This document shows, in pieces, positions 425 to 37,078 of a stretch of DNA of 37,300 nt. Position 1 is the stretch's first letter. Each line of letters begins with the position of its first letter. This DNA comes from Patescibacteria group bacterium (GTDB taxonomy: Bacteria > Patescibacteriota > Minisyncoccia > Phycocordibacterales > WO2-35-19). The notes under the pieces are model-generated. The model was given only the letters and a program-made list of their open reading frames with translations. It made no database searches and had not been told where the DNA came from. Where the stretch lies: positions 8,683 to 45,982 of the forward strand of contig JBBUBJ010000006.1 of assembly GCA_038058285.1 (NCBI GenBank). The letters are read 5' to 3'. The position numbers and the translations under genes are program-made.

Positions 425-1162
425 TTATATTTCCTCATCCAAATCATTTGGTTCAAACCCGACATCCAATGTAGGGCTGAAATCTGGGTTAAAAGATAGC
501 CACTCAAAAACTTCTTTTTTAAATATTTTAGGATTATCAAAATATTCTGGGAAATCTTTTTTTGAAAGAATTTTATTTTGTTCTCTTCCTTTTCCGCAAT
601 AATCTTGATAACTACTCCATTCGTAATTTTCCAAAAACTTTTTTGCTTTTTCAACATCTTTTATTCCGTTTTCTTTCCACTTTGAATCAATAAGTTTAAC
701 TGGATTTAGATGAATATAAGAAAAAATATATTTTGAGTATGGATCGGTGTCTATATAAGAGCTCTTGAAATTTGTTTCAAAAAGTCCGCCAGTACGTTTA
801 TATTTTGTATTAAAATATTTTGAGTATGATATGCAGAGTTTTTTCATAAAAAGACTAACCTGATCTAACCCGACATTGGATGTAGGGCTGGGTGTTAGAG
901 TTGTTAAAATGTGAAAATGATTTGGCATAAGTGCCCAAGCACCGATTGAAACGATTGGCTTTCCTTTATCAAACTCCCAAGCATCTATTTTTCTTTTAAC
1001 AATATCATCTCTAAAATTTATTCGTTTTTTAGAATTGGAAAGATACAACATTTTTACAAAACGACTTCTATCTTGATCATCTAGGAAAATATTTTGTTTG
1101 CTATTTCCCCTGTTATAAAGATGATAGAACTCACCTTCCACAAAATTTTCTTTTCTTTGCAT
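425..1162 (-). CDS. IS200/IS605-family Y1 (HUH) transposase-like protein, RAYT-like (copy 1)
   Basis: Motifs: N-terminal GEFYHLYNRGN, HUH motif MPNHFHIL, C-terminal YIHLNP with Tyr. Paralogous to 36377..37027. Two copies of the family F palindrome sit in-frame inside the ORF. Confidence 0.8.
   Translation of the reverse strand: MQRKENFVEGEFYHLYNRGNSKQNIFLDDQDRSRFVKMLYLSNSKKRINFRDDIVKRKIDAWEFDKGKPIVSIGAWALMPNHFHILTTLTPSPTSNVGLDQVSLFMKKLCISYSKYFNTKYKRTGGLFETNFKSSYIDTDPYSKYIFSYIHLNPVKLIDSKWKENGIKDVEKAKKFLENYEWSSYQDYCGKGREQNKILSKKDFPEYFDNPKIFKKEVFEWLSFNPDFSPTLDVGFEPNDLDEEI
457..478. repeat. Family F palindrome, copy 1 (CCCGACAT-CCA-ATGTAGGG)
   Basis: Imperfect 8-bp arms around a 3-nt loop. It is the exact reverse complement of 1205-1222. 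Read in-frame as ...SPTLDVGFEP... at the transposase C-terminus. Confidence 0.75.
867..890. repeat. Family F palindrome, copy 2 (CCCGACAT-TGG-ATGTAGGG)
   Basis: Same arms as copy 1 but the loop is complemented (TGG versus CCA). Read in-frame as ...SPTSNVGLD..., 6 residues after the HUH motif. Confidence 0.75.
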
Positions 1163-3088: not shown

Positions 3089-4357
3089 ATGAACTACAAA
3101 AAAAAGGTCTTAAAAAATGGGTTGAGGATTATAGCTGTGCCTATTAAAAATGCACCGTCGGTGACAGTGATGTCTTTGATTGAGGCGGGATCAAAATACG
3201 AAAATAAGCAAAACAACGGCATCTCGCATTTTTTGGAGCACATGTGTTTTAAGGGCACAAAGAAGAGGCCTAAAGCCATTGATATTTCAAGAGAATTTGA
3301 TTCCATGGGCGCTCAGCATAATGCCTTTACTGGTCAGGAAGTAACTGGTTATTGGGCCAAAGCGCACAAAAAACATACAGATAAAATGCTAGATATTATT
3401 GCCGATATGTATTTGAACCCCACTTTTCCAGCTGGAGATTTGGAAACAGAAAAAGGGGTAATAGTAGAAGAAATAAATATGTATGAAGATTTGCCTCAGA
3501 GACTAGTGCAAGAAGTTTTTAATGAACTCTTGTATGGTAATCAACCAGCTGGTTGGAGTATCGCCGGCACTAAAGAAAATGTGCGGGGATTTAAACGGGA
3601 TGATTTTGTAAATTATAGAAAACAGCATTATGTTTCTTTTGCTACTACTATTGTTATTGCCGGAGATGTTGATCCTAAGAGTATTTTTAAAAAAGTAGAA
3701 AGATTTTTTGCTGGTATGCCGGTTAGCAAAAAAAATGGAAAGAAAAAAGTTATAGAAAAACAAAACGTGCCGGCAGTTAAGTTGCGATTTAAAGAAACAG
3801 ATCAAACACATCTGGTAATAGGTGTCAGAGCTTTTAATCTTTATGACAAAAAAGCACCAGCTTTAAGATTGCTTTCAACCGTGCTTGGCAATGGTATGAG
3901 CTCTCGTCTTTTCCAGAAGATGAGAGAAGAATTGGGCATCTGCTACTATGTCAGGTCTACCGTTGATGATTTGACTGACCATGGTATTCTGTCAATTTCA
4001 GCTGGAGTTGATTCAAATAGGGTTGAACAGGGTATAAATGGAATTTTGGATGAAATGAAAAAAATCAGAGATGAAAAAATTCCAGAATCCGAATTGCGCA
4101 AAGCCAAAGATTATGTTATAGGTTGTATGTATCTGGGTTTAGAATCCTCCGACTCTCTGGCAAATTTTTATGGTTCTCAAGAAATTTTTAAAGAAAAAAT
4201 AAAGACGCCTAAAGATATTGAAAAAGAAATTGAAAAAATCACCGCCTCCGATATCGGCAAAGTTGCCAAAGAAATAATCACCAACAAAAAACTCAATATG
4301 GCCATTGTCGGCAAATATAAAGACGAGGAGCGATTCAAAAAGATTCTAAAACTTTAA
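3089..4357 (+). CDS. M16 family zinc peptidase (insulinase/pitrilysin-like)
   Basis: HxxEH zinc motif (HFLEH) near the N-terminus. The roughly 420 aa two-lobe length is typical. Confidence 0.85.
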   Translation: MNYKKKVLKNGLRIIAVPIKNAPSVTVMSLIEAGSKYENKQNNGISHFLEHMCFKGTKKRPKAIDISREFDSMGAQHNAFTGQEVTGYWAKAHKKHTDKMLDIIADMYLNPTFPAGDLETEKGVIVEEINMYEDLPQRLVQEVFNELLYGNQPAGWSIAGTKENVRGFKRDDFVNYRKQHYVSFATTIVIAGDVDPKSIFKKVERFFAGMPVSKKNGKKKVIEKQNVPAVKLRFKETDQTHLVIGVRAFNLYDKKAPALRLLSTVLGNGMSSRLFQKMREELGICYYVRSTVDDLTDHGILSISAGVDSNRVEQGINGILDEMKKIRDEKIPESELRKAKDYVIGCMYLGLESSDSLANFYGSQEIFKEKIKTPKDIEKEIEKITASDIGKVAKEIITNKKLNMAIVGKYKDEERFKKILKL

Positions 4358-4950: not shown

Positions 4951-5004
4951 CCCCACCCCGTCCCGCTAAAGCGGGACCGCCCCTCACCTTGCGAAGGTGA
5001 GGGG
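4951..5004 (-). repeat. Family D composite: CCCCACCCC tail, GTCCCGC-TAAA-GCGGGAC hairpin, CCCCTCACCTT-GCG-AAGGTGAGGGG hairpin
   Basis: Two perfect hairpins at 4960-4977 and 4980-5004. The first shares the GCTAAAGC/GCTTTAGC core with family C. Confidence 0.6.
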
Positions 5005-5110: not shown

Positions 5111-5482
5111 ATGCTTACTCGAGCTGCTATGAATCGCAGTTTAGGATTACCGCGTGCCCCTGGATCTTGTTTCGGAGTTTCCGATCCAAGATATTTACGG
5201 CCCAACTTCAACAGAAGTCCGCTTCCGTTGCCACAAGCGACCAACAAAAACAAGGCCACGATTACCACCAGATTTTATATTCTGGAATGGTGGAAGAAAA
5301 ACTTCGAGCCAGAACACAGGTCTTTTAGGGCCAAAAACAATGGCCTGGCTGTCATCAAAGCGATGCGCATTCTCGGCATCAAAGGGAAATTGACTGGTCA
5401 CAAGCTCCGCAAAGCCGGAGCGAGCAGAGTTTCTCTCCTCAGCTTTAGCGATGGGGAGATTTTCCCGGGACCCAAGCAGTGA
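5111..5482 (+). CDS. Hypothetical basic protein (orphan); coding status uncertain
   Basis: GGAGGTG lies 7 nt before the ATG, a promoter lies upstream and a terminator downstream. However, the G+C-rich stretch is open in several frames on both strands and the N-terminal half is low-complexity (R/P/S/L-rich). Confidence 0.35.
   Translation: MLTRAAMNRSLGLPRAPGSCFGVSDPRYLRPNFNRSPLPLPQATNKNKATITTRFYILEWWKKNFEPEHRSFRAKNNGLAVIKAMRILGIKGKLTGHKLRKAGASRVSLLSFSDGEIFPGPKQ
5434..5459 (+). repeat. Family C hairpin (stem TCTCC/GGAGA around AGCTTTAGCGA)
   Basis: TCTCCTC-AGCTTTAGCGA-TGGGGAGA. Same loop as 7349-7374 and 12463-12490 but with a different stem. Confidence 0.5.
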
Positions 5483-5501: not shown

Positions 5502-5536
5502 GCGGGCAGGATTCATTCTTGTCCGCTTTGTTTTTT
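5502..5536 (+). terminator. Rho-independent terminator after 5111..5482
   Basis: Stem GCGGGCAGG / CTTGTCCGC (two G-U pairs), followed by TTTGTTTTTT. Confidence 0.6.
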
Positions 5537-6314
5537 ATTTTTCTCCCTTCCCCTTCGCAAGGGGAAGGGTTGGGGGTGAGGTCGTTTTGTTATTTACCGA
5601 ATTTATATACGCGCAATACTCGCAATTAGGGCTTGCTTTTGGAATTTCGTCGTTGTCCAAACATTTTTTCATATCTATCAAAGTTTTTTCTATCCAGTCG
5701 TCTTTGCCTGTGTAAGGAATAATTTTTATATCAAATTCAAGTTTGCCGTCAAAAGCTTCGCGGTCGCGCTTGCCATTTGCATAAACAAAATAACCGGTAT
5801 CAGAAACATTCAAATCATTATGTCGCAAAAGCCACTGATAAACTTCCATCTGTCTTTTGTAACCGTCTTGCCACTCGGCGTCCAAATTTACTTCTTCGTC
5901 TTTGCTTGTGGCTTTATAATCAACCACCATAAGCTGACCGTCTGGACTTTGCCAAATATCATCAACCGCTCCAAAAACTACAAAATTAGTTGGCTCATGA
6001 AATGTCTCAACACCAACAAAATTTTCTCGCCACTTTTCCATACGCGGATCTTGAAAAGGCACGGCGTCTATCCCGTAAGATTCCATAAGCGGGTGCGGGG
6101 TTTTTTGTTTTCGATGAATATCAAATTCTTTTTTGAGAAGCGTATCAACCGCGCTATTTAAGTTAAAAGGAAATCCCTGTGGTCGTGAGACACCAATTCG
6201 CCTGTCCAAATAAAAACATCGCGGACACTCCACAAACAGGTCAATTTTACTTCGGCTCACTTTGAAAAATTCCTTTGCCTTTGGGTCGTATAATTTTTTT
6301 CTATAAAATGCCAT
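5535..6314 (-). CDS. PD-(D/E)XK nuclease, Cas4/RecB-like with terminal Cys pairs
   Basis: N-terminal CPRC, core VVDYK (D-x-K), C-terminal CEYC. The last 15 codons and the stop lie inside a family D repeat. Confidence 0.7.
   Translation of the reverse strand: MAFYRKKLYDPKAKEFFKVSRSKIDLFVECPRCFYLDRRIGVSRPQGFPFNLNSAVDTLLKKEFDIHRKQKTPHPLMESYGIDAVPFQDPRMEKWRENFVGVETFHEPTNFVVFGAVDDIWQSPDGQLMVVDYKATSKDEEVNLDAEWQDGYKRQMEVYQWLLRHNDLNVSDTGYFVYANGKRDREAFDGKLEFDIKIIPYTGKDDWIEKTLIDMKKCLDNDEIPKASPNCEYCAYINSVNNKTTSPPTLPLAKGKGEK
5545..5581 (+). repeat. Family D hairpin + tail (CCCTTCCCCTT-CGC-AAGGGGAAGGG + TTGGGGGTGAGG)
   Basis: Perfect 11-bp stem at 5545-5555 / 5559-5569. The tail matches 12783-12792 and 29854-29865. 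Confidence 0.75.
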
Positions 6315-7155: not shown

Positions 7156-8276
7156 TTTTCTATTATACCACCACCAAGACAAATTTCATTGTCATACAAA
7201 ACCAAAGATTGTCCCGCCGAAACTCCCATTTGTGGTTTGTCAAACTCAACCAACAAGGATGACCCTTGTTGGTTAGGTTTTTGTGGTGTAATTTTGCATG
7301 GAATTTTTTCTTGGCGGTATCTTGTACGACAAAATAATTTTTCTTTAGTCCCGCGAAGCTTTAGCGAAGTGGGATTTATCCAATTTATTTCTGAAATTTC
7401 AAGTGTCAAGGGTCCCCCTTGGCTTTTTGAGTATGGTGTAATTTTGGGAGCGACAGTTATAGTGTTTTTTGAAATGTCTTTAGAAACAACATACAAAGGC
7501 ATTTCATTTTCTGATTTTTTGGTGACAGTGAATCCATGACGTTCGCCTATTGTAAAAAATAAAGCTCCGTTGTGGTGACCTATTTTTTTTCCTTCTAAAT
7601 CCAAAACATCTCCTCTTTTTGTTGGCATATATTGAGCTAAAAATTCTTTCATATCTATTTTACCCAAAAAACAAAGTCCTTGGCTGTCTTTTCTTGTCGC
7701 CTGTGGCAAGCCAAATTTTTCCGCCAACTTTCGTACTTTTGGTTTTTGCAAATGACCTATGGGAAATAAAATATGTTCGAGTTGTTTCTGTGTTAATGTC
7801 CACAAAAAATATGATTGGTCTTTGTTTTTGTCGGCTCCTTCCATTAACCCCACCCTGCCCTCCCCTTGATCAGAGGAGGCAACCGTACGAGCATAATGGC
7901 CAGTAGCAACATATTGAGCGCCATTTTTAAGAGCAAATTTGAGAAAGTGGCCGAATTTTATTTCTTTATTGCACATTACATCAGGATTAGGTGTTCTCCC
8001 TTTTTTATATTCGGCAATCATATAGTCAACCACTTCTTTTTTATATTCTTTTTCCAAGTCAAGAGTAATAAAAGGAATATCCAAAACTGCCGCCACTCTC
8101 ATAGCGCTTCTTCTATCTTCTTTCCAAGTGCAAGGATAACTCGGCGGAGTCCACGCTTTTATAAAAACTCCTGTCACATCATAACTTTCCTTCTTCAGCA
8201 ATGCCGCCGACACAGCGCTATCTACGCCTCCAGAAAGCCCCACATAAACTTTCTTTTTTACTGATTGACTTTTCAT
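7152..8276 (-). CDS. mnmA: tRNA 2-thiouridine(34) synthase MnmA
   Basis: PP-loop SGGVDS, KDQSYFL, TRYRQ and the C-terminal GQS.VLY pattern. Contains family A, B, C and D repeats in-frame. Confidence 0.9.
   Translation of the reverse strand: MKSQSVKKKVYVGLSGGVDSAVSAALLKKESYDVTGVFIKAWTPPSYPCTWKEDRRSAMRVAAVLDIPFITLDLEKEYKKEVVDYMIAEYKKGRTPNPDVMCNKEIKFGHFLKFALKNGAQYVATGHYARTVASSDQGEGRVGLMEGADKNKDQSYFLWTLTQKQLEHILFPIGHLQKPKVRKLAEKFGLPQATRKDSQGLCFLGKIDMKEFLAQYMPTKRGDVLDLEGKKIGHHNGALFFTIGERHGFTVTKKSENEMPLYVVSKDISKNTITVAPKITPYSKSQGGPLTLEISEINWINPTSLKLRGTKEKLFCRTRYRQEKIPCKITPQKPNQQGSSLLVEFDKPQMGVSAGQSLVLYDNEICLGGGIIEK
7248..7295 (+). repeat. Family A hairpin + tail, solo copy inside mnmA
   Basis: AACCAACAAGG-ATGAC-CCTTGTTGGTT + AGGTTTTTGTGGTGTAATTTT. 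Near-identical to 37031-37078. It is 48 nt long and is read on the minus strand as KITPQKPNQQGSSLLV. Confidence 0.85.
7349..7374 (+). repeat. Family C hairpin inside mnmA
   Basis: TCCCGC-GA-AGCTTTAGCGA-A-GTGGGA. Read on the minus strand as PTSLKLRG. Confidence 0.7.
7401..7445 (+). repeat. Family B hairpin + tail inside mnmA
   Basis: AAGTGTCAAGGGTCCCCCTTGGCTTTTTGAGTATGGTGTAATTTT. It is 45 nt long and is read as KITPYSKSQGGPLTL. Near-identical to 12561-12605. Confidence 0.85.
7848..7880 (-). repeat. Family D (short, degenerate) inside mnmA
   Basis: CCCCACCCTGCCCTCCCCTTGATCAGAGGAGGC compared with 14729-14773 (CCCCACCCC...GCCCTCCCCTTGTTCAGGGGAGGG). Read as SDQGEGRVG. Confidence 0.55.
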
Positions 8277-12212: not shown

Positions 12213-14642
12213 TTATACCACAAAATTAACTATTTTATTGAGTACAAAAATAGTCTTTTTTATTTCCTTATCATCAAGCCATTTTTGGACATCTGGCATG
12301 ATTAGCGCTTTTTCTTGGGCTTCTTTTTCGGATATGCCCGTTTCCGCTTCAAACTGAGCCCTCACTTTTCCATTTATTTGAACGACAATAATCACATTTT
12401 CCTCTTTAATTTTTGACTCGTCATATTTTGGCCATTCTTCCAAATGAATTGAAGATTCATTTGCCCCGCATAGCTTTAGCGAAGTGGGGCTGTTCCAAAT
12501 CTCATCCGTCATATGTGGTGCAAAAGGCGCCAGCAATTTCAAAAAAGTTTCAAACATGTCTAGTGTCAAGGGTTCCCCTTGGCTTTTTTGGTGTGGTGTA
12601 ATTTTTTCAAGTTCGTTTAATAAAATCATCATAGCTGAAATAGCAGTATTGAATTTATAATTTTCAATATCTTCTGTTACTTTTTTTATGGTTTTGTGCA
12701 AAAGATTCTCGAGTTTTTTATTACCGACTCCTAACTCCCCCGCCTCGCTCCGCTCGGCACCCCCTCTTAAATTAAGAGGGGGTTTGGGGGTGTTATTCAC
12801 TTTTGCCGCTATCTTCCACACCCTCTCCAAAAATCGGCGAATTCCTACCACTCCTCCCAAATCCCACGGATACTGCCCCGTTTCGTTATATGGTCCTATA
12901 AAAGCCAAATACATTTTGACTGTATCTGATCCGACTTTTTCTACCATTTCATCAGGGTCAACTACATTACCTTTGCTCTTGCTCATCTTTTGTCCGTCTG
13001 GTCCCAAAATAAGAGCTCGATTCATTCTTTTAATAAAAGGCTCTGATTCATTTACCAGTCCCAAATCAAAAAGAGCTTTGTGAAAAAATCTTGAATACAA
13101 AAGATGCATGGTGTTATGTTCAGCTCCGCCGGAATAGCGATTAACCGGCATCCATTTTTTTAGCCTGAGCTTATCGAATGGTTCGTTTTTGTTTTTAGAA
13201 TCGCAGTATCTTAAAAAATACCACGAAGAATCTATAAAAGTATCCATAGTGTCATATTCAGGTTTCCAGCCTTCGCCAAATATTTTCTCTACTCTTTCCC
13301 TCAATTCTTTTGAAGTAGCGATTGGAGATTCGCCTTTGGGTGCAAAATCTTTAACATCTTCAGGCAGAAGCCACGGCAAATTTTCTTTCGGCACAGGATG
13401 CGGCTTTCCTTCCGGATCATAAACTATGGGTATGGGACACCCCCAATATCTCTGGCGCGAAAGCAGCCAGTCCCTCAATTTATATTTTGTTACTTTTTGA
13501 CCAAATTTTTGTAAATCCCAGTCAAGTGTGATTTCTTTTACCGGTAAATTATATTTTTTAGCGAAGTCCATATCTCTTTCGTCATGTGACGGAACCGCCA
13601 TAATTGCTCCCGTGCCATAATTACCCAAAACATAATCAGCCACGAAAACCGGTATCTCCTCCCCATTTGCCGGATTAATCACCTTCACTCCTTTTATTTC
13701 AACCCCCGTTTTTTCTTTCTTTTCATTAGTCCTCTCTATTTCTGTTTTTTGTTTTGTCTGATTTATGTATTTTTGAATTTCTTCTTTGTTTCGGATTTCG
13801 GATTTAGAATTTAGAATTTCTTGCGTGAGCCAAGGATGTTCCGGTGCGACAACAACATAAGTTGCTCCCATTAAAGTATCTGCTCTTGTTGTAAAAACTT
13901 TTATTTTCTCTTTTATTTCGGATTTCGAATTTCGGATTTCGAATTTTAAAACTGTTCCTTCCGACTTCCCAATCCAGTTTTTTTGCGCCGTCTTTATTTC
14001 TTCTGGCCATTTCAAATTATCTAAATCGGAAAGTAGGTCCTCAGCATAATCTGTAATTTTGAAAAACCACTGCTCTAAATCTTTTTGAATAACTTCGGCA
14101 TCGCATCTCTCACACTTCCCCGCCACCACCTGCTCGTTGGCCAGCACCGTATTGCACGACGGGCACCAGTTGACGCTAGCCTTTTTCTTATAAGCCAAAC
14201 CTTTTTCGTAAAGTTTCAAAAACAACCACTGCGTCCATTTATAATATTCCGGGTCGGAAGTGATGACTTTGCGCGACCAGTCAAAGGAATTGCCCATACT
14301 CTGCAGTTGCTTTTCCATGTAGGCAATATTTTCGTAAGTCCACTTGCGCGGGTCCACGCCGTGTTTGATGGCGGCGTTTTCTGCCGGCAATCCGAATGCA
14401 TCAAAACCAATCGGAAACATGACATTGTAACCTTGCATTCTTTTGGTCCGCGCGAAAATATCCGGCACGGCAAAAGCATACCAATGACCTATGTGCAAAT
14501 TGCCCGATGGGTATGGGAACTCTACTAGCGTGTAAAAATTTTCTTTTCCCTTTACTTCATCCTCCGTTTTGTAAAGATTATCTTCCTGCCATTTCTTCTG
14601 CCACTTCTTTTCTATTTCTTTATGATCGTATTTTTCTTGCAT
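12213..14642 (-). CDS. leuS: Leucine--tRNA ligase
   Basis: PYPSGNLHIGH (HIGH motif), KMSKSKGN (KMSKS motif), FTTRADT and the editing domain. Contains family B, C, D and two family E repeats in-frame. Confidence 0.95.
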   Translation of the reverse strand: MQEKYDHKEIEKKWQKKWQEDNLYKTEDEVKGKENFYTLVEFPYPSGNLHIGHWYAFAVPDIFARTKRMQGYNVMFPIGFDAFGLPAENAAIKHGVDPRKWTYENIAYMEKQLQSMGNSFDWSRKVITSDPEYYKWTQWLFLKLYEKGLAYKKKASVNWCPSCNTVLANEQVVAGKCERCDAEVIQKDLEQWFFKITDYAEDLLSDLDNLKWPEEIKTAQKNWIGKSEGTVLKFEIRNSKSEIKEKIKVFTTRADTLMGATYVVVAPEHPWLTQEILNSKSEIRNKEEIQKYINQTKQKTEIERTNEKKEKTGVEIKGVKVINPANGEEIPVFVADYVLGNYGTGAIMAVPSHDERDMDFAKKYNLPVKEITLDWDLQKFGQKVTKYKLRDWLLSRQRYWGCPIPIVYDPEGKPHPVPKENLPWLLPEDVKDFAPKGESPIATSKELRERVEKIFGEGWKPEYDTMDTFIDSSWYFLRYCDSKNKNEPFDKLRLKKWMPVNRYSGGAEHNTMHLLYSRFFHKALFDLGLVNESEPFIKRMNRALILGPDGQKMSKSKGNVVDPDEMVEKVGSDTVKMYLAFIGPYNETGQYPWDLGGVVGIRRFLERVWKIAAKVNNTPKPPLNLRGGAERSEAGELGVGNKKLENLLHKTIKKVTEDIENYKFNTAISAMMILLNELEKITPHQKSQGEPLTLDMFETFLKLLAPFAPHMTDEIWNSPTSLKLCGANESSIHLEEWPKYDESKIKEENVIIVVQINGKVRAQFEAETGISEKEAQEKALIMPDVQKWLDDKEIKKTIFVLNKIVNFVV
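12463..12490 (+). repeat. Family C hairpin inside leuS
   Basis: GCCCCGC-AT-AGCTTTAGCGA-A-GTGGGGC. Read as SPTSLKLCG. Confidence 0.7.
12561..12605 (+). repeat. Family B hairpin + tail inside leuS
   Basis: TAGTGTCAAGGGTTCCCCTTGGCTTTTTTGGTGTGGTGTAATTTT. It is 45 nt long and is read as KITPHQKSQGEPLTL. Confidence 0.85.
12733..12792 (+). repeat. Family D hairpin + tail inside leuS
   Basis: CCCCCTCTTAA-A-TTAAGAGGGGG (12760-12782) plus the TTTGGGGGTG tail, preceded by CCCCCGCCTCGCTCCGCTCGGC. Read as TPKPPLNLRGGAERSEAGE. Confidence 0.7.
13789..13820. repeat. Family E tandem units inside leuS
   Basis: TTTCGGATTTCGGATTTAGAATTTAGAATTTC. Read as EILNSKSEIRN. Confidence 0.7.
13915..13947. repeat. Family E tandem units inside leuS
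   Basis: ATTTCGGATTTCGAATTTCGGATTTCGAATTTT. Read as EIRNSKSEIK. Confidence 0.7.
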
Positions 14643-14677: not shown

Positions 14678-14718
14678 GAGGATGACCCTTGAAGAATTTG
14701 CCCCAAAGGGTCATCCTC
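14678..14718. repeat. Family G long hairpin (arms GAGGATGACCCTT / AAGGGTCATCCTC, loop ending TGCCCCA)
   Basis: Perfect 13-bp arms. The arm sequence is related to the family A core GGATGACCCTT. The loop end TGCCCCA-AAGGG is shared with 23151-23205. Confidence 0.7.
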
Positions 14719-14811: not shown

Positions 14812-14846
14812 AACGGCTCAGATGGCAGGAAATGAGCCGTTGAAAA

Positions 14847-14888
14847 ACAAGGATGACCCTTGTACTTGAACAAAGTGTGATGTAATTT
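14847..14888 (+). repeat. Family A, degenerate copy
   Basis: ACAAGGATGACCCTTGT + ACTTGAACAAAGTGTGATGTAATTT. The tail overlaps the TAA stop of 14887..15561. Confidence 0.6.
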
Positions 14889-15561
14889 AAACACTCTCTA
14901 TTATTTTTGTTCTTTCCCAATCAGTGGGAACAATGGCGACAATTCTTTTATTTTCAATATCAATCTGAAAAACCATATCCTTTAATTTCCATCCACGAAT
15001 AACTCCTACCTGTTCAAACTGAGTTTTTAATTCGTTCATTTTATGTTCCGCCTCGTTCATAAGAGTTGCAACATCTTCGTCTGAGTACCCTTTTTCTTTA
15101 AGATTTAAGGTATCTCGTTCAGACCAGCGGATACCGGGTATTCGTTCCATAACAATAATATGTGTTCCTCCTTGTTCTGCTTTGGCAACCGGTTTTGCGG
15201 CGGGTAATCCCATTTGAGCAAGCCGTTCAAGAATTTTATACTCATAAAAATGATCTCCTGATTTACCAACATCTCCTTTGGTAAAATTTACTCGTCTAGC
15301 AACAGTTAAAATTTCTTGATTTTCTGGATTTTTCCAAACAGGTAAATCTTTGACAGCAGTTGGGTCTTCTCGAACTTTTCCCGTTTCATCAACTTTCTTT
15401 TCTCCTGTTTTTATGTTCTTTCCTTCTCTCTCAAAATATCCCGTTGGGTCATCAAGAAATTCTTGAGGCACAAAATTAACAAATTCAGTCTCAACTTCTA
15501 CTTTGGGAATGGGAGTGATTTCTTGAATATTATTTTGTGGATTTGGGGAACTTTCCATCAT
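14887..15561 (-). CDS. Hypothetical protein with weak protein-kinase-like (RIO/Kdo-type) pattern
   Basis: The ORF overlaps the hicA stop by 4 nt. EYKILERLAQMGLPAAKP...HIIVMERIPG resembles the kinase alphaC/hinge, but the catalytic-loop position reads GVIRGWKLKD rather than HGDL..N. Confidence 0.5.
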   Translation of the reverse strand: MMESSPNPQNNIQEITPIPKVEVETEFVNFVPQEFLDDPTGYFEREGKNIKTGEKKVDETGKVREDPTAVKDLPVWKNPENQEILTVARRVNFTKGDVGKSGDHFYEYKILERLAQMGLPAAKPVAKAEQGGTHIIVMERIPGIRWSERDTLNLKEKGYSDEDVATLMNEAEHKMNELKTQFEQVGVIRGWKLKDMVFQIDIENKRIVAIVPTDWERTKIIESV

Positions 15562-21222: not shown

Positions 21223-21954
21223 ATGAAAAAAATAATCACAATAACGGGAATTATAGCCTTAATTTTGGTCTTGTTTTTTGTTTTTAGAAATACTTCTTTG
21301 GCGCCAGTGGTCAATAATAATTCAGGGACAAATACTGAAAAAATTAAAATTGACCCGAATATTCCCGGACAAACTTTACCTCTCTCAAACGATCCTAAGG
21401 ATGTGGCTTGGGCGCTTTTTCAAAAATATTTGGCTTTTAATAAAGCTCGCGATTTTGAAGGAGTTAAAAGTGTTGTTTATAAAATAGCTTCTGTTTGCAC
21501 CGACCCCAAAACCAGAATTGACTGTGAGGCCAGAATGAATTCGGCTTATCAATATGGCAGTACTTTAAAAAAAGAAGATTTTGTAAATATTTGGAGTGAT
21601 GAAAATCAAATTATTTTATCGACTGATTTTTGGCTTGAATCGATAGAAAAATTAGACCAATATGGCCGATTCAGAAGCATTATATTTTTTGTAAAAGGGG
21701 CGGATAACGAATGGAAACTTTTAAGTTTTAGTCCAACTATGGGCAATGCGACCAACAAAGGGGCAGCCAACCAAGAAGAAGTTGATACAAGACTGATTAT
21801 TTATACGGAAGACAAAGATAAAGACGGTATAGCAGATTATATAGAAGAATGTATCCCAGCTGATATTAAAGATACTTGTGTTCCCACAAATCCCAAAATC
21901 CGCGACACCGATGGCGATGGCCTTTGGGATGGCGTGGAAGCATTGATGAAATGA
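21223..21954 (+). CDS. Membrane-anchored/secreted protein with C-terminal Asp-rich calcium-binding-type repeats
   Basis: N-terminal hydrophobic helix. C-terminal DKDKDGIADY and DTDGDGLWDG (thrombospondin type-3-like D-x-D-x-D-G motifs). Confidence 0.7.
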   Translation: MKKIITITGIIALILVLFFVFRNTSLAPVVNNNSGTNTEKIKIDPNIPGQTLPLSNDPKDVAWALFQKYLAFNKARDFEGVKSVVYKIASVCTDPKTRIDCEARMNSAYQYGSTLKKEDFVNIWSDENQIILSTDFWLESIEKLDQYGRFRSIIFFVKGADNEWKLLSFSPTMGNATNKGAANQEEVDTRLIIYTEDKDKDGIADYIEECIPADIKDTCVPTNPKIRDTDGDGLWDGVEALMK

Positions 21955-21957
21955 TCT

Positions 21958-23787
21958 TTACTTTTTTCCAGCTTTAACTCTCTCCAATTCGGTCAGAAGT
22001 TTTTTGCGGAGGCGGACAGATTTGGGAGTGATTTCCAAATATTCATCTTCCGCCATAATTTCCAGACCGCTTTCAATAGTGATAGGCGTCGGTGGAGCCA
22101 AATAAATTTTATCGTCCGAACCGGAGGCGCGCATATTTGTAAGTTGTTTGCCCTTGGTTGGATTGACCGTCAACTCGTCGCCCTTGGATGTGTTGCCTAT
22201 AACCATACCCTCGTAAACTTCTGTTGTTGGACCAATATATAAAGTGCCTCGAGTTTGCAAATTATCAAGAGCGAAAGCTAATGCTTTGCCGTTGGCCATT
22301 GAAGTCATTGAGCCAGTCGCTTTTTTTTGTATTTCACCGGCGTAGGAACGAAAACCAACAACTCTGGTACCCAAAATTCCCTCGCCTTTTGTATCAACAA
22401 CAAACTGATTTCTATAACCCAAAAGTCCTCGAGTCGGCCCTTCAAAAATTAAACGCACATGATTGTTGTGGTGTTTTGTGTTTGTCATAATCGCTCCTCT
22501 TTTTCCTAACTTTTCAATAACCACTCCTTGCATTTCTTCCGGCACATCTATAGTTACTTCTTCAAAAGGTTCGCTTTTTATTCCATAAATTTCTTTTATA
22601 ATAACCTGTGGTTGAGAAACTTGCATTTCAAACCCCTCTCTTCTCATGTTTTCAAGTAGGATGGCAATGTGCAGTTCTCCTCGCCCGTAAACTTTCATCT
22701 CATCTTGACCAAAATCAACTTTAAGTCCTACATTCACTTCCAACTCTTTTTCAAGTCGCTCTCTAATTTGACGACTGTTGACATATTTTCCTTCCCGTCC
22801 CCCAAAAGGCGAATTATTAACCAAGAAATTTACAGCTATGGTTGGTTCGTCTACATTTATTGCCGGCAAACTTTCTGTTTCCGGATTGTCTGTTATTGTG
22901 TCGCCTATATAAATGTTAGGTAGGCCGGCAATCATGGCAATGTCCCCAGTTTCCACTTCTTTTGATTCTTTTCTAGCTACGCCTTCAAATGTAAAAATTT
23001 TTGTAATTTTACCTTCCTCTATTTTGCCATCCGTTTTTTTAACAAAAACTTTTTGACCGTTTTTTATTGTGCCCTCATAAATTCTGACTATGGCCATTCT
23101 GCCCAAAAAATTATCATAAGCCAAATTAAAAGGTTGTGCTCGCAGTGGTTCCTGCCAAGGGGAACCCTTAAACTGCTCCTGCCCCAAAGGGTTCCCCTTG
23201 GCAGGATTAGCAGGAATAACTTTTTCCAAAATAGTATCAAGCAAAGGTTTTATACTTTCCTTTTTATCATTCAAATTTTTTATTACAATTCCTTCTCTGG
23301 CGACAGCATGAAGAGTTGTAAAATTTAATTGTTCTTCGGTGGCATCAAGGTCAAAGAACAACTCAAAAATTTCGGCAAGGGTAGTTTTAATCCTGTTAAT
23401 GTCGGCACCGGGACGATCAATTTTATTTAAAACAACGATTGGTTTGTGACCTATTTCCAAAGATTTTTTCAAAACAAAACGAGTCTGAGGCATAGGCCCT
23501 TCTTGAGCATCAACAACCAAAATAACCGAATCAATGGATCTTAAAATTCTTTCAACTTCACTTCCAAAGTCGGCATGTCCCGGTGTATCTACTATATTTA
23601 TTTTGGTGTCTTTATATATGACAGAAGCGTTTTTGGAATAAATAGTAATGCCACGTTCTTTTTCAAGTGCGTTTGTATCCATTGAAAATCCTTCCTCGCT
23701 AAAACCTGTTTGCTTCAAAATAGCATCCGTCAACGCTGTTTTGCCGTGGTCCACATGGGCTATGATTGCTATGTTTCGTATTTCCAT
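21958..23787 (-). CDS. typA: Translational GTPase TypA/BipA
   Basis: IRNIAIIAHVDHGKT, DTPGHADF, NKID, and the C-terminal BipA-specific domain. I prefer the ATG at 23787. Contains a 55-nt hairpin in-frame. Confidence 0.9.
   Translation of the reverse strand: MEIRNIAIIAHVDHGKTALTDAILKQTGFSEEGFSMDTNALEKERGITIYSKNASVIYKDTKINIVDTPGHADFGSEVERILRSIDSVILVVDAQEGPMPQTRFVLKKSLEIGHKPIVVLNKIDRPGADINRIKTTLAEIFELFFDLDATEEQLNFTTLHAVAREGIVIKNLNDKKESIKPLLDTILEKVIPANPAKGNPLGQEQFKGSPWQEPLRAQPFNLAYDNFLGRMAIVRIYEGTIKNGQKVFVKKTDGKIEEGKITKIFTFEGVARKESKEVETGDIAMIAGLPNIYIGDTITDNPETESLPAINVDEPTIAVNFLVNNSPFGGREGKYVNSRQIRERLEKELEVNVGLKVDFGQDEMKVYGRGELHIAILLENMRREGFEMQVSQPQVIIKEIYGIKSEPFEEVTIDVPEEMQGVVIEKLGKRGAIMTNTKHHNNHVRLIFEGPTRGLLGYRNQFVVDTKGEGILGTRVVGFRSYAGEIQKKATGSMTSMANGKALAFALDNLQTRGTLYIGPTTEVYEGMVIGNTSKGDELTVNPTKGKQLTNMRASGSDDKIYLAPPTPITIESGLEIMAEDEYLEITPKSVRLRKKLLTELERVKAGKK
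23151..23205. repeat. Family G long hairpin inside typA
   Basis: Perfect 19-nt arms CCTGCCAAGGGGAACCCTT / AAGGGTTCCCCTTGGCAGG around AAACTGCTCCTGCCCCA. The arm core equals the family B stem. Read as PAKGNPLGQEQFKGSPWQ. Confidence 0.85.
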
Positions 23788-23993
23788 AATTAAAAATCCC
23801 CTGAGGGAAGTTGTCCTCATTATACATTATTTCTTTTAAAAAACAAATTCCCAATTAAACTCTGACCTTTTTGGGTTTTCTTTTTTCTTTTTTATGTCCA
23901 TCGCCTTTGGCCATAAGTTTATTATATCATTTAATATATTTTAAAAAATGTTAACAATATTTTTATAAGCAAGTTTTGATATATTTTTAATTC

Positions 23994-29786: not shown

Positions 29787-29865
29787 TCACCCTACCCTCT
29801 CTTACAACAAGAGAGGGTTTCTGAAACCCCCTTCCCTTGTTAAGGGAAGGGGGTTGGGGGATGAG
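29787..29865. repeat. Inverted pair of family D elements between dnaX and ddl
   Basis: Left element: CTCACCCTA + CCCTCTCTT-ACAAC-AAGAGAGGG (29795-29817). Right element: CCCCCTTCCCTT-GTT-AAGGGAAGGGGG (29827-29853) + TTGGGGGATGAG. The tails point outward. Confidence 0.75.
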
Positions 29866-36317: not shown

Positions 36318-36321
36318 AATT

Positions 36322-36372
36322 AATCAAACCAACAAAGATGACCTTTGTGGTTTGATTAGTGTGGTATAATTT
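36322..36372 (+). repeat. Family A hairpin + tail, left flank of transposase-like gene
   Basis: AATCAAACCAACAAAG-ATGAC-CTTTGTGGTTTGATT + AGTGTGGTATAATTTT. The stem carries a compensatory A-T pair where other copies have G-C. Confidence 0.8.
36362..36370 (+). promoter_or_regulatory. Extended -10 box TGGTATAAT formed by the repeat tail, 6 nt before ATG 36377
   Basis: TGGTATAAT-TTTGAT-ATG. No SD is possible. Confidence 0.5.
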
Positions 36373-36376
36373 TGAT

Positions 36377-37027
36377 ATGAAAAATAGGGATTATAAAAAT
36401 TTTGCTAAGGGAGAAATTTATCATGTTTATAATAGAGGGGTGAATAAAGCAGATATTTTTAAGACTCAGAAAGATTATGAGGTTTTTCTATCCCGTTTAA
36501 AAGAAAATTTATTTCCTGAATTTGTAGATAAAAAGAAATTATCTTGGTTGGAAAAACGCAGAAAATTACTTCCCCCAAACTCTTTTGATTTAATATGTTA
36601 TTGTCTTATGCCGAATCATTTTCATTTACTTATTCAACAAAAAACAGATTTACCCATAACCAAATTAATATCTAAAATATGTACAAGTTATGCAATATGT
36701 TTTAACAAAAAACATGGGAGAGTTGGGGCGGTTTTTCAGGACCAATTTAAGGCTGTATTAGTTGAAAACAATGAACAACTTTTATGGACATCTTATTATA
36801 TTCATAAAAACCCAACAGAAGCAGATATTGTAATAAATCTCAAAGATTATAAATGGGGCAGCTATTCGGAATATTTTGATAAGGAAAATAGTTTTAAATT
36901 ATGTAAAAAAGATATTATTACTAAACAGTTTAATTCCGAAAAGCAATATTTAAAGTATTTTGATGATAAAGAAAATGATGAAATGACTTCTTTGAGAGAT
37001 TTTTATTTTGATTTTAGCGAGGATTAA
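36377..37027 (+). CDS. IS200/IS605-family Y1 (HUH) transposase-like protein, RAYT-like (copy 2)
   Basis: GEIYHVYNRGVNK, HUH motif MPNHFHLL, YIHKNP with Tyr. I prefer the ATG at 36377 because the GTG at 36359 in the ORF track lies inside the repeat. Confidence 0.8.
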   Translation: MKNRDYKNFAKGEIYHVYNRGVNKADIFKTQKDYEVFLSRLKENLFPEFVDKKKLSWLEKRRKLLPPNSFDLICYCLMPNHFHLLIQQKTDLPITKLISKICTSYAICFNKKHGRVGAVFQDQFKAVLVENNEQLLWTSYYIHKNPTEADIVINLKDYKWGSYSEYFDKENSFKLCKKDIITKQFNSEKQYLKYFDDKENDEMTSLRDFYFDFSED

Positions 37028-37030
37028 CAA

Positions 37031-37078
37031 AACCAACAAGGATGACCCTTGTTGGTTGGCTAAGTGTGGTGTAATTTT
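37031..37078 (+). repeat. Family A hairpin + tail, right flank of transposase-like gene
   Basis: AACCAACAAGG-ATGAC-CCTTGTTGGTT + GGCTAAGTGTGGTGTAATTTT, starting 4 nt after the stop codon. Confidence 0.85.

Follow-up and report, generated by a model that had tools for sequence, protein, structure and literature searches.

Anatomy and position of a perfect hairpin in the typA gene

The stretch analyzed here, a window of 37,300 nucleotides (37 kb, ∼37% GC) from one groundwater Patescibacteria genome of the Zambryskibacteria/Paceibacteria type (GCA_038058285.1, contig JBBUBJ010000006.1), carries on its minus strand an open reading frame (ORF; 21958–23820) that matches Escherichia coli BipA structures in the PDB with E = 1.6e-167. 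The coding sequence of this essential GTPase, typA/bipA (21958–23787, minus strand), encodes 609 amino acids from a MEIRNIA start, in which Pfam recognizes GTP_EFTU at residues 2 to 188 and EF-G_D2 at residues 220 to 300, followed by EFG_C and BipA_C. An inverted-repeat search of the window identified, inside this gene, a 57-nt perfect hairpin (23150–23206, minus strand) whose 20-nt arms are 100% complementary and enclose a 17-nt loop. In the coding orientation, the 5′ arm (23187–23206) reads TCCTGCCAAGGGGAACCCTT and includes the mini-palindrome AAGGG-GAA-CCCTT, the loop (23170–23186) reads TGGGGCAGGAGCAGTTT and includes the conserved family loop motif TGGGRCNGGRGCAGTTT, and the 3′ arm (23150–23169) reads AAGGGTTCCCCTTGGCAGGA. 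The whole element is read in frame as (N)PAKGNPLGQEQFKGSPWQ, and the core common to copies in other genes comprises 51 nt, or 17 codons (GCCAAGGGG...CCCCTTGGCAG). A first-pass annotation of this DNA had described a 55-nt hairpin with 19-nt arms at 23151–23205, in frame in typA and between the G domain and domain II; the palindrome is indeed perfect, the minus-strand ORF is TypA/BipA, and the Pfam domain boundaries bear out the interdomain position, with the correction that the arms measure 20 nt and the element 57 nt.

As a control for chance, we examined 100 dinucleotide-preserving shuffles of the window for perfect inverted repeats with loops of 3 to 30 nt. The longest repeat per shuffle averaged 10.6 nt and never exceeded 14 nt, compared with the 20 nt observed, and a chance origin of the arms is excluded. 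As RNA, the hairpin region folds with −45.3 kcal/mol (z = −4.9). Rfam at its gathering thresholds recognized two tRNAs in the window and nothing else; at E ≤ 1, the hairpin matched eukaryotic miRNA precursors far below threshold, which we judged to be hairpin noise. The element-encoded residues (∼194–211) form the linker joining the G domain to domain II. In an AlphaFold model of TypA that is poor overall (mean predicted local distance difference test score, pLDDT, of 58), the two flanking domains are confident and residues 197 to 212 are coil with pLDDT < 50, so the element is predicted to add a disordered, Gly/Pro-rich interdomain loop.

Perfect palindromes can be produced by chimeric reads or by amplification, and we therefore considered whether the hairpin could be an artefact of sequencing or assembly. 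At least 24 contigs, drawn from several separate metagenome assemblies of groundwater and representing several samples and assemblers, encode the identical 609-amino acid protein, and the hairpin DNA is identical in all five loci inspected (four returned by the search and one from the metagenome scan described below), which derive from different Hainich groundwater assemblies and include a strain variant 99.1% identical to the window. A species whose TypA is 86% identical has the same arms with two loop substitutions, and related elements turn up in JGI, ENA, NCBI, and Logan assemblies. Because the identical protein recurs on at least 24 contigs and the identical palindrome in every locus inspected, the strain variant included, we regard the chance that it is artefactual as negligible.

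The hairpin as an insertion relative to TypA orthologs

We compared 120 close TypA relatives (P0001–P0120) and 80 loci from GTDB species representatives (Paceibacteria), the closest TypA returned among the latter being 86 to 87% identical. The linker from PLLD to QPFNLA has a fixed length of 29 to 31 residues in the large majority of these sequences, with the native consensus VPPAKNDKEAPL, and spans 43 residues in the window, a net gain of 14 residues (42 nt). Relative to E. coli BipA, the local segment is likewise ∼14 residues longer by our own count from the alignment. At the DNA level, the empty allele reads GCC AAA AAC GAT AAA GAA GCN CCT CTC and the filled allele reads GCT AAT [CCT GCC AAG ... 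TGG CAG] GAA CCA CTG. The alignment thus confirms the insertion that the first-pass annotation had suspected from a segment put at about 13 residues longer than in E. coli BipA, with the net gain revised to 14; the 18 residues it assigned to the element are the encoded stretch, and the net gain is smaller than 18 since a few native codons were lost. That annotation had also named a result that would speak against it, namely close relatives encoding the same residues without palindromic DNA. Locus L005 encodes the same residues in the same palindromic DNA, and where relatives encode other residues at the site, their DNA is again a perfect palindrome, of a different sequence.

Most relatives, including the nearest TypA neighbors of the hairpin bearers, are empty at this site and keep the conserved native linker. 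Every other insert found at this position, apart from the decayed copy in L012, which forms no stable hairpin, is a long perfect or near-perfect hairpin, and the inner stems differ: GCCAAAGGGCGTCTTC in L008 and L009, a partly decayed stem of related type in L013, GGTTGTCAAAGACGGACTTT in L010, and GGCTGCCAAAGGCGACCTTC in L011, where the loop is oppositely oriented. Short singlet hairpins occupy the site in L115 (TGTCAAGGT-TCA-ACCTTGACA) and L114 (GCCGAGGG-TGC-CCCTTGGC). The L011 copy (3339–3395, in the typA of P0005) has the family loop in reverse-complement form (AAAATGCCCCAGTCCCA) between arms that keep the frame; either the loop was flipped by recombination between the arms or the element inserted independently in the opposite orientation. 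We looked for a fixed target sequence and found no consistent one, GCCAA preceding most typA copies and neither the lepA nor the uvrA copies described below.

Because the nearest neighbors are mostly empty, several gains, or recombinational transfer of filled alleles, are more likely at this site than one gain followed by many exact losses; the neighbor-joining TypA tree itself is poorly resolved. In this tree, the filled P0002 stands beside the empty P0034, and we rejected this pair as an example of recent gain or loss because P0002 is a mosaic. Up to approximately residue 267, its TypA equals that of P0003 in all but one loop residue; from there on, it is identical to that of P0034. This ENA contig (3966 bp) represents either an interspecies homologous recombinant or a chimeric metagenome contig, and its two source lineages co-occur in Hainich well H43. 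TypA proteins of this clade have at least five other insertion hotspots, after consensus positions 58 to 60, 174, 235, 260, and 343 to 347, with inserts such as EEAGLPAEAG and PTREVIGGPTESVG; the inserts checked at positions 58 to 60 and 174 contain no strong hairpins.

Conservation of the arms at the DNA level

The typA genes of the window and of L005 are 79% identical in DNA (86% in amino acids) and 59% identical at third codon positions. Their elements agree in 55 of 57 nt, more than any other 57-nt stretch of the gene; the two mismatches lie in the loop, and none of the 13 third codon positions of the arms differs. In an alignment of 14 element copies, 15 of the 20 stem pairs have changed on both sides, and 95.7% of cells are paired as compared with 76.5% in shuffles. 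Nearly all of these are Watson–Crick pairs and hardly any are G-U, a pattern more in keeping with a DNA palindrome than with an RNA helix. The residues encoded by the loop vary among copies (QEQF, QGQF, PGQF, PGQL, and QEHL). Since the loop residues differ freely while the arms are conserved, the constraint (or the recency) lies on the palindrome and not on the peptide.

Related hairpins in other genes and genomes

Scanning metagenome contigs for the arms (CCAAGGGGAACCCTT-N(8–30)-AAGGGTTCCCCTTGG) yielded 20 loci. A near-identical 17-nt loop is found in the same reading frame (AKGNPLGxxQxKGSPWQ) in typA, lepA, and uvrA, and the same arms with other loops are in frame in gatB and tatD. The lepA gene of L105 contains two in-frame copies, the first at the homologous linker between the G domain and domain II (IIEKIPDPNS[...]EPLQALVFDF) and the second at a nonlinker site. 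All intragenic copies examined are open in the frame of their host gene, the long-loop forms being 51 or 54 nt with no stop codons. Approximately 10 copies are intergenic, several of them between an A-run and a T-run in the manner of bidirectional terminators, and one of these (L096) matches the typA core in 50 of 51 nt.

The uvrA site is empty in two relatives (EEKKKDYVP), holds the element with the same arms as in typA (family B, below) in two genomes (L104 and L107), and holds a nested variant of its own in L010. The variant in L010 is present in both typA and uvrA, indicating that variants are uniform within that genome and differ between genomes. At the L010 uvrA site (21550–21640), outer arms of the L009 type (GCTGGCAAAGGGCGTC...GACGCCCTTTGCCAGC) enclose a complete L010-type hairpin; this looks like the insertion of one element into another, or the replacement of its loop. 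No copy was found in the viral contigs searched, and a protein-database search with four element translations joined gave no match, the word index of that search requiring longer shared words. The family is spread over several Patescibacteria and several genes and is not private to this genome.

Singlets and sister families in the window

The arm core AAGGGTTCCCCTT recurs outside typA, exactly at 12568–12580 and with one mismatch at 7408–7420; the 13-nt core has three copies in the 37 kb, two of which are the arms of the typA element. The exact copy lies in a family-B singlet with tail (12548–12605, plus strand), consisting of the hairpin GTCAAGGGTTCCCCTTGGC at 12564–12584 and the tail TGGTGTAATTTT, in frame in leuS (KITPHQKSQGEPLTLD). 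A second family-B singlet with tail (7388–7445, plus strand; hairpin at 7404–7424, with the one core mismatch) is in frame in mnmA (KITPYSKSQGGPLTLE), and both belong to a 58-nt repeat ending in TGGTGTAATTTT. The 16- to 17-nt arm unit thus stands alone in these singlets, as does the singlet unit of the hairpin-forming doublets of repetitive extragenic palindromic (REP) sequences known as REPINs; singlet hairpins also occupy the typA site of L114 and L115. Each 20-nt arm of the typA element contains the mini-palindrome AAGGG-GAA/TTC-CCCTT, which is the arrangement of a REPIN inverted doublet. Because the arm is a short hairpin also found alone, we read the typA element as an inverted doublet of a short palindromic unit, in the manner of a REPIN.

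Family-A arms (AAGGATGACCCTT) form a long intergenic hairpin at 14678–14718 (plus strand; arms GAGGATGACCCTT) with the TGCCCCA/TGGGGCA loop motif of the typA element, and a near-identical A-armed element occurs together with a B-armed one in L097, another Hainich genome. The pattern CCCTT-N(8–10)-TGCCCCAAAGGG has only two sites in the window, the typA element and 14686–14710, with none expected. These results agree with the first-pass annotation, which had equated the typA arm core with the family-B stem (as the recurrence at 12568–12580 bears out), had noted the loop motif common to the typA element and the hairpin at 14678–14718, and had proposed a composite family, since TGGGGCA-type loops do occur with B arms (typA) and with A arms (14678–14718 and L097).

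Family-A hairpins of the form AACCAACAAGG-ATGAC-CCTTGTTGGTT, followed by the tail TGTGGT(A/G)TAATTTT, are found at 36321–36373, 37026–37078, 7243–7295, and 14837–14889. The tail resembles an extended −10 promoter and at 36321–36373 lies ∼10 nt before the ATG of the transposase-like gene described next, so that hairpin and tail may constitute a terminator-plus-promoter module. The copy at 7243–7295 instead lies within mnmA, antisense and in frame (KITPQKPNQQGSSLLVEF).

RAYT-like genes flanked by sister hairpins

The window encodes, at 425–1162 (minus strand) and 36359–37027 (plus strand), two divergent proteins that resemble REP-associated tyrosine transposases (RAYTs) of the HUH/Y1 type, with matches to the NCBIfam model REP_Tyr_transpos at E = 5e-10 and 5.6e-13. 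When the two are aligned with three homologs found at other loci, the HUH (NHFH) and YIxxNP motifs prove to be conserved. The gene at 36359–37027 (plus strand) has a family-A hairpin on each side, namely a singlet with TGTGGTATAATTTT tail immediately upstream (36321–36373, plus strand) and a singlet with tail immediately downstream (37026–37078, plus strand), and is a candidate for the enzyme mobilizing the hairpin superfamily. A homolog in L095, a locus that also carries a B-armed element in tatD, has ATACAAGGACTCTCCTTGTAT on both sides, and the flanks of both genes are CAAGG...CCTTG-type hairpins. Hairpins on both sides of the gene are the classical RAYT arrangement.

The other RAYT-like gene (425–1162, minus strand) has a GTAG-containing repeat (CCCGACATCCAATGTAGGGC) both at its flanks and as an invader within it, with copies at 458–477, 868–888, and 1179–1222. 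One in-frame copy directly follows the HUH motif and adds ∼7 residues (TLTPSPTSNVGLDQ), another falls in the codons of the C terminus, and just upstream of the start there is a pair of hairpins.

Other repeats in the window

LeuRS, encoded by leuS (12213–14642, minus strand), exceeds a 76%-identical ortholog by 36 residues, which lie in several discrete in-frame blocks. These are the B singlet described above, 19 residues with the palindrome ACCCCCTCTTAAATTAAGAGGGGGT (12759–12783), an SPTSLKL block (12456–12498), and KSEIK and KSEIRN blocks from TTTCGGATTT-type repeats (13772–13946). The SPTSLKL block belongs to a GC-rich repeat without a hairpin (7341–7383, 12456–12498, and 5441–5465) that reads PTSLKL(R/C)G in mnmA and leuS. 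Similar-looking peptides (PSTSSGQ, STSLRAG, and FDKLRA) occur in lepA (L105), gatB (L112), a priA-like ORF, other TypA proteins (after consensus positions 58 to 60), and L109, and this may be another in-frame repeat family that is read in different frames. GC-rich hairpins with 3-nt loops (CCCCT..CCTT-NNN-AAGG..AGGGG) lie at 4980–5004, 5545–5569, 29825–29855, and 29790–29820; some are intergenic, and one occupies the last codons of a PD-(D/E)XK nuclease ORF (5535–6314).

Origin of the typA hairpin

We consider it likely that the typA hairpin is a copy of a small, nonautonomous, dispersed palindromic element of REPIN-like build that sits in frame in a permissive linker. The element would be an inverted doublet of the short palindrome CAAGGG-NNN-CCCTTG around the conserved spacer TGGGGCAG..CAGTTT, and it would have entered the variable, A-rich linker of typA between the G domain and domain II. 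With a 51-nt core that is open in frame and a linker at the surface, the insert would be translated as an extra disordered loop and tolerated. From the RAYT-like genes and their flanking hairpins, we infer that the element probably moves as a single-stranded hairpin on which RAYT-like tyrosine transposases of the HUH type act. The arms could owe their lasting perfection to having been copied recently, to conversion by other copies, or to template-switch correction within the hairpin. The recurrence of the typA, lepA, and uvrA sites might reflect a scarcity of sites that tolerate 17 additional residues, a preference of new copies for A-rich sites or for hairpins already present, or the spread of filled alleles through homologous recombination.

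Several observations weigh against this explanation. Comparison of filled and empty sites revealed neither a target-site duplication nor a clean junction, such as a MITE, a miniature transposable element whose terminal inverted repeats match an IS family, would leave, and the net gains of 42 nt in typA and ∼36 nt in uvrA are smaller than the element, A-rich native codons having been lost; such sites fall short of demonstrating a simple insertion, whether by cut-and-paste or by copy-and-paste. Of the four frames that are open, the long-loop B-armed copies within genes all use a single one. The RAYT-like proteins score 39 to 49 bits against a curated NCBIfam cut-off of 80 bits, and neither a RAYT-like ORF nor a five-sequence profile matched any PDB sequence. 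The hairpins flanking these genes belong to sister families (A and the GTAG type) and not to the B family of typA, and no RAYT flanked by the B family itself was seen among the loci examined. For this genome, copies were counted in 37 kb, where there are two doublets, one with B arms and one with A arms, along with two B singlets. Finally, random transposition by itself does not account for the recurrence of different variants at the same typA and uvrA sites. Possible causes, which these data do not separate, are strong filtering for peptides and sites that are tolerated, preferential insertion into hairpins already present (as in the nested uvrA copy of L010), conversion, and template-switch correction.

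This recurrence leads to the thought that the hairpins home to, or are retained at, interdomain linkers of essential genes, where successive genome-specific variants replace one another or nest, rather than being junk scattered at random and then filtered by selection. The candidate homing sites would be the homologous linker between the G domain and domain II of the paralogous GTPases TypA and LepA and the one fixed site in UvrA. We think this unlikely; if true, it would imply a structure- or sequence-directed in-frame integration that is undescribed for REP/RAYT systems or, alternatively, that very stable hairpins within genes serve the host at domain boundaries, for instance in cotranslational pausing or mRNA control.

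The hairpin could instead be a selected mRNA or DNA structure at the domain boundary, for example one that slows the ribosome, giving the G domain time to fold ahead of the emergence of domain II, or that serves as a regulatory or processing site. Arm conservation far above the expectation for synonymous sites, strong covariation, the same kind of hairpin at the homologous linker of LepA, hairpins at interdomain positions in UvrA and GatB as well, and the several typA lineages with a hairpin at this exact site would all fit such a function, but most close relatives, the nearest included, do without the hairpin and retain the native linker, intergenic copies of the same element exist, as does one at the second, nonlinker lepA site, the pairing is almost purely Watson–Crick, as expected of DNA palindromes, and decayed or shortened versions persist at the typA site (L012, L114, and L115). 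On balance, we find selected function improbable. Slightly less probable still is a short palindrome resembling an uptake signal, spread by biased uptake and homologous recombination rather than transposition. Such a preferred signal for DNA uptake or recombination would build up at permissive places in genes and, in inverted pairs, at terminators. In Neisseria, pairs of DNA uptake sequences are inverted and flanked by A and T runs, and the intergenic copies here, inverted pairs between A and T runs, can be likened to them; the copies also look like replacements rather than clean insertions, and the P0002 typA is a mosaic of two co-occurring lineages whose element-bearing N-terminal part matches P0003. 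Against this stand a very low density (the 13-nt core occurs three times in 37 kb, twice within this one element), the presence of several unrelated cores in one genome and of different cores in close genomes, net gains of 12 to 14 codons, and the sister hairpins flanking RAYT-like genes; the P0002 mosaic is equally explicable as an assembly chimera.

Two further explanations would dispense with either the mobile element or the translated loop. Template switching during replication is a documented one-step route to perfect hairpins (PMC10710096), and a fold-back switch at the typA linker could have made the inverted repeat locally: the arms are perfect, and the native linker begins with GCCAAA, which resembles the outer stem GCCAAGG. 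The same 51 nt, loop included, are nevertheless found in lepA, in uvrA, and intergenically in other genomes, and the arm also occurs elsewhere in the window; a fold-back cannot give the same loop at unrelated loci, so that a local origin seems very unlikely to us, and local fold-back may rather be what keeps the arms perfect. An untranslated insert, passed over by the ribosome in a programmed bypass like that of phage T4 gene 60 or removed from the mRNA, is suggested by the sheer form of the element, a GC-rich and very stable hairpin of ∼50 nt (−45 kcal/mol) in a coding region of an AT-rich genome, as are the mitochondrial byp elements. Every intragenic copy examined is nonetheless open and keeps the frame, which fits selection on translated inserts and which bypass would not need, and no matched take-off and landing codons were seen; we give this explanation hardly any credence. 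We thus retain the dispersed, REPIN-like element as the likely source of the typA hairpin.

Significance and comparison with known systems

Selfish DNA in frame within essential genes has mostly been discussed for Rickettsia, and we found no relevant report in the searchable literature of in-frame palindromic elements in the Patescibacteria (candidate phyla radiation). The element described here is a different and far smaller hairpin, and it links the phenomenon to REP/REPIN-like anatomy and RAYT-like genes in a huge lineage of uncultured bacteria with tiny genomes. Conserved proteins examined here differ between lineages in loops and in length, and for some of these differences the element provides a concrete source, which matters for annotation, alignment, phylogenomic marker genes, and structure prediction. 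The different, perfectly paired variants at the typA, lepA, and uvrA sites offer a tractable system in which the targeting, maintenance, and replacement of palindromes in coding DNA can be studied.

Mitochondrial GC clusters, byp elements, and T4 gene 60 are, like this element, GC-rich hairpins of tens of nucleotides in AT-rich coding regions. The byp and gene 60 elements break the reading frame and are bypassed by the ribosome, whereas the element described here keeps the frame and appears to be translated. The MITE-like repeats of enterobacteria and others, such as ERIC/RU and BOX, share with it small size, lack of autonomy, and an occasional in-frame location within ORFs (PMC2759123 and PMC10969869); they differ in exceeding 100 bp, in having terminal inverted repeats and often target-site duplications, and in that their intragenic copies are exceptional, whereas the present element is a single hairpin for which we saw no target-site duplication.

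Classical REPINs are much longer than the doublet in typA, and a genome has tens to hundreds of them. As described in the REP/REPIN-RAYT reports (Bertels & Rainey 2011, PMC3116915; PMC3337134), REPINs are built, like the typA family, from a short imperfect or perfect palindromic unit that occurs alone and as an inverted doublet folding into a long hairpin, and they share with it genome-specific variants and HUH/Y1 RAYT-like genes with hairpins of similar type on both sides. By definition, REP sequences and REPINs are extragenic, whereas many copies here are intragenic and in frame. In REP superfamilies, one end of the palindrome bears a conserved tetranucleotide, GTAG or CGTC (PMC3733652). Neither tag was found in or beside the typA element, nor does its family carry one, and the RAYT-like proteins of the window are divergent and below threshold.

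The Rickettsia palindromic elements (RPEs; Ogata et al. 2000, summarized in PMC10969869) lie in frame in housekeeping genes. Like the typA element, they are repeated palindromes that sit in frame in unrelated housekeeping genes, are translated and compatible with the protein fold, also occur between genes, and inhabit small AT-rich genomes (37% GC here); the hairpin copies in typA, lepA, uvrA, gatB, tatD, leuS, and mnmA are all in frame in this way. RPEs measure ∼100 to 150 bp, are confined to Rickettsia, and have a conserved peptide per family, whereas this element measures 51 to 57 nt, belongs to Patescibacteria, and encodes variable loop residues. Unlike an RPE, it is a simple, perfect hairpin whose loop is conserved and whose arms vary from genome to genome, and it exists as singlet and as doublet; we expect no sequence relationship between the two. 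The element lacks defining features of both systems, being closest in its behavior to RPEs and in its anatomy to REP/REPIN-RAYT systems.

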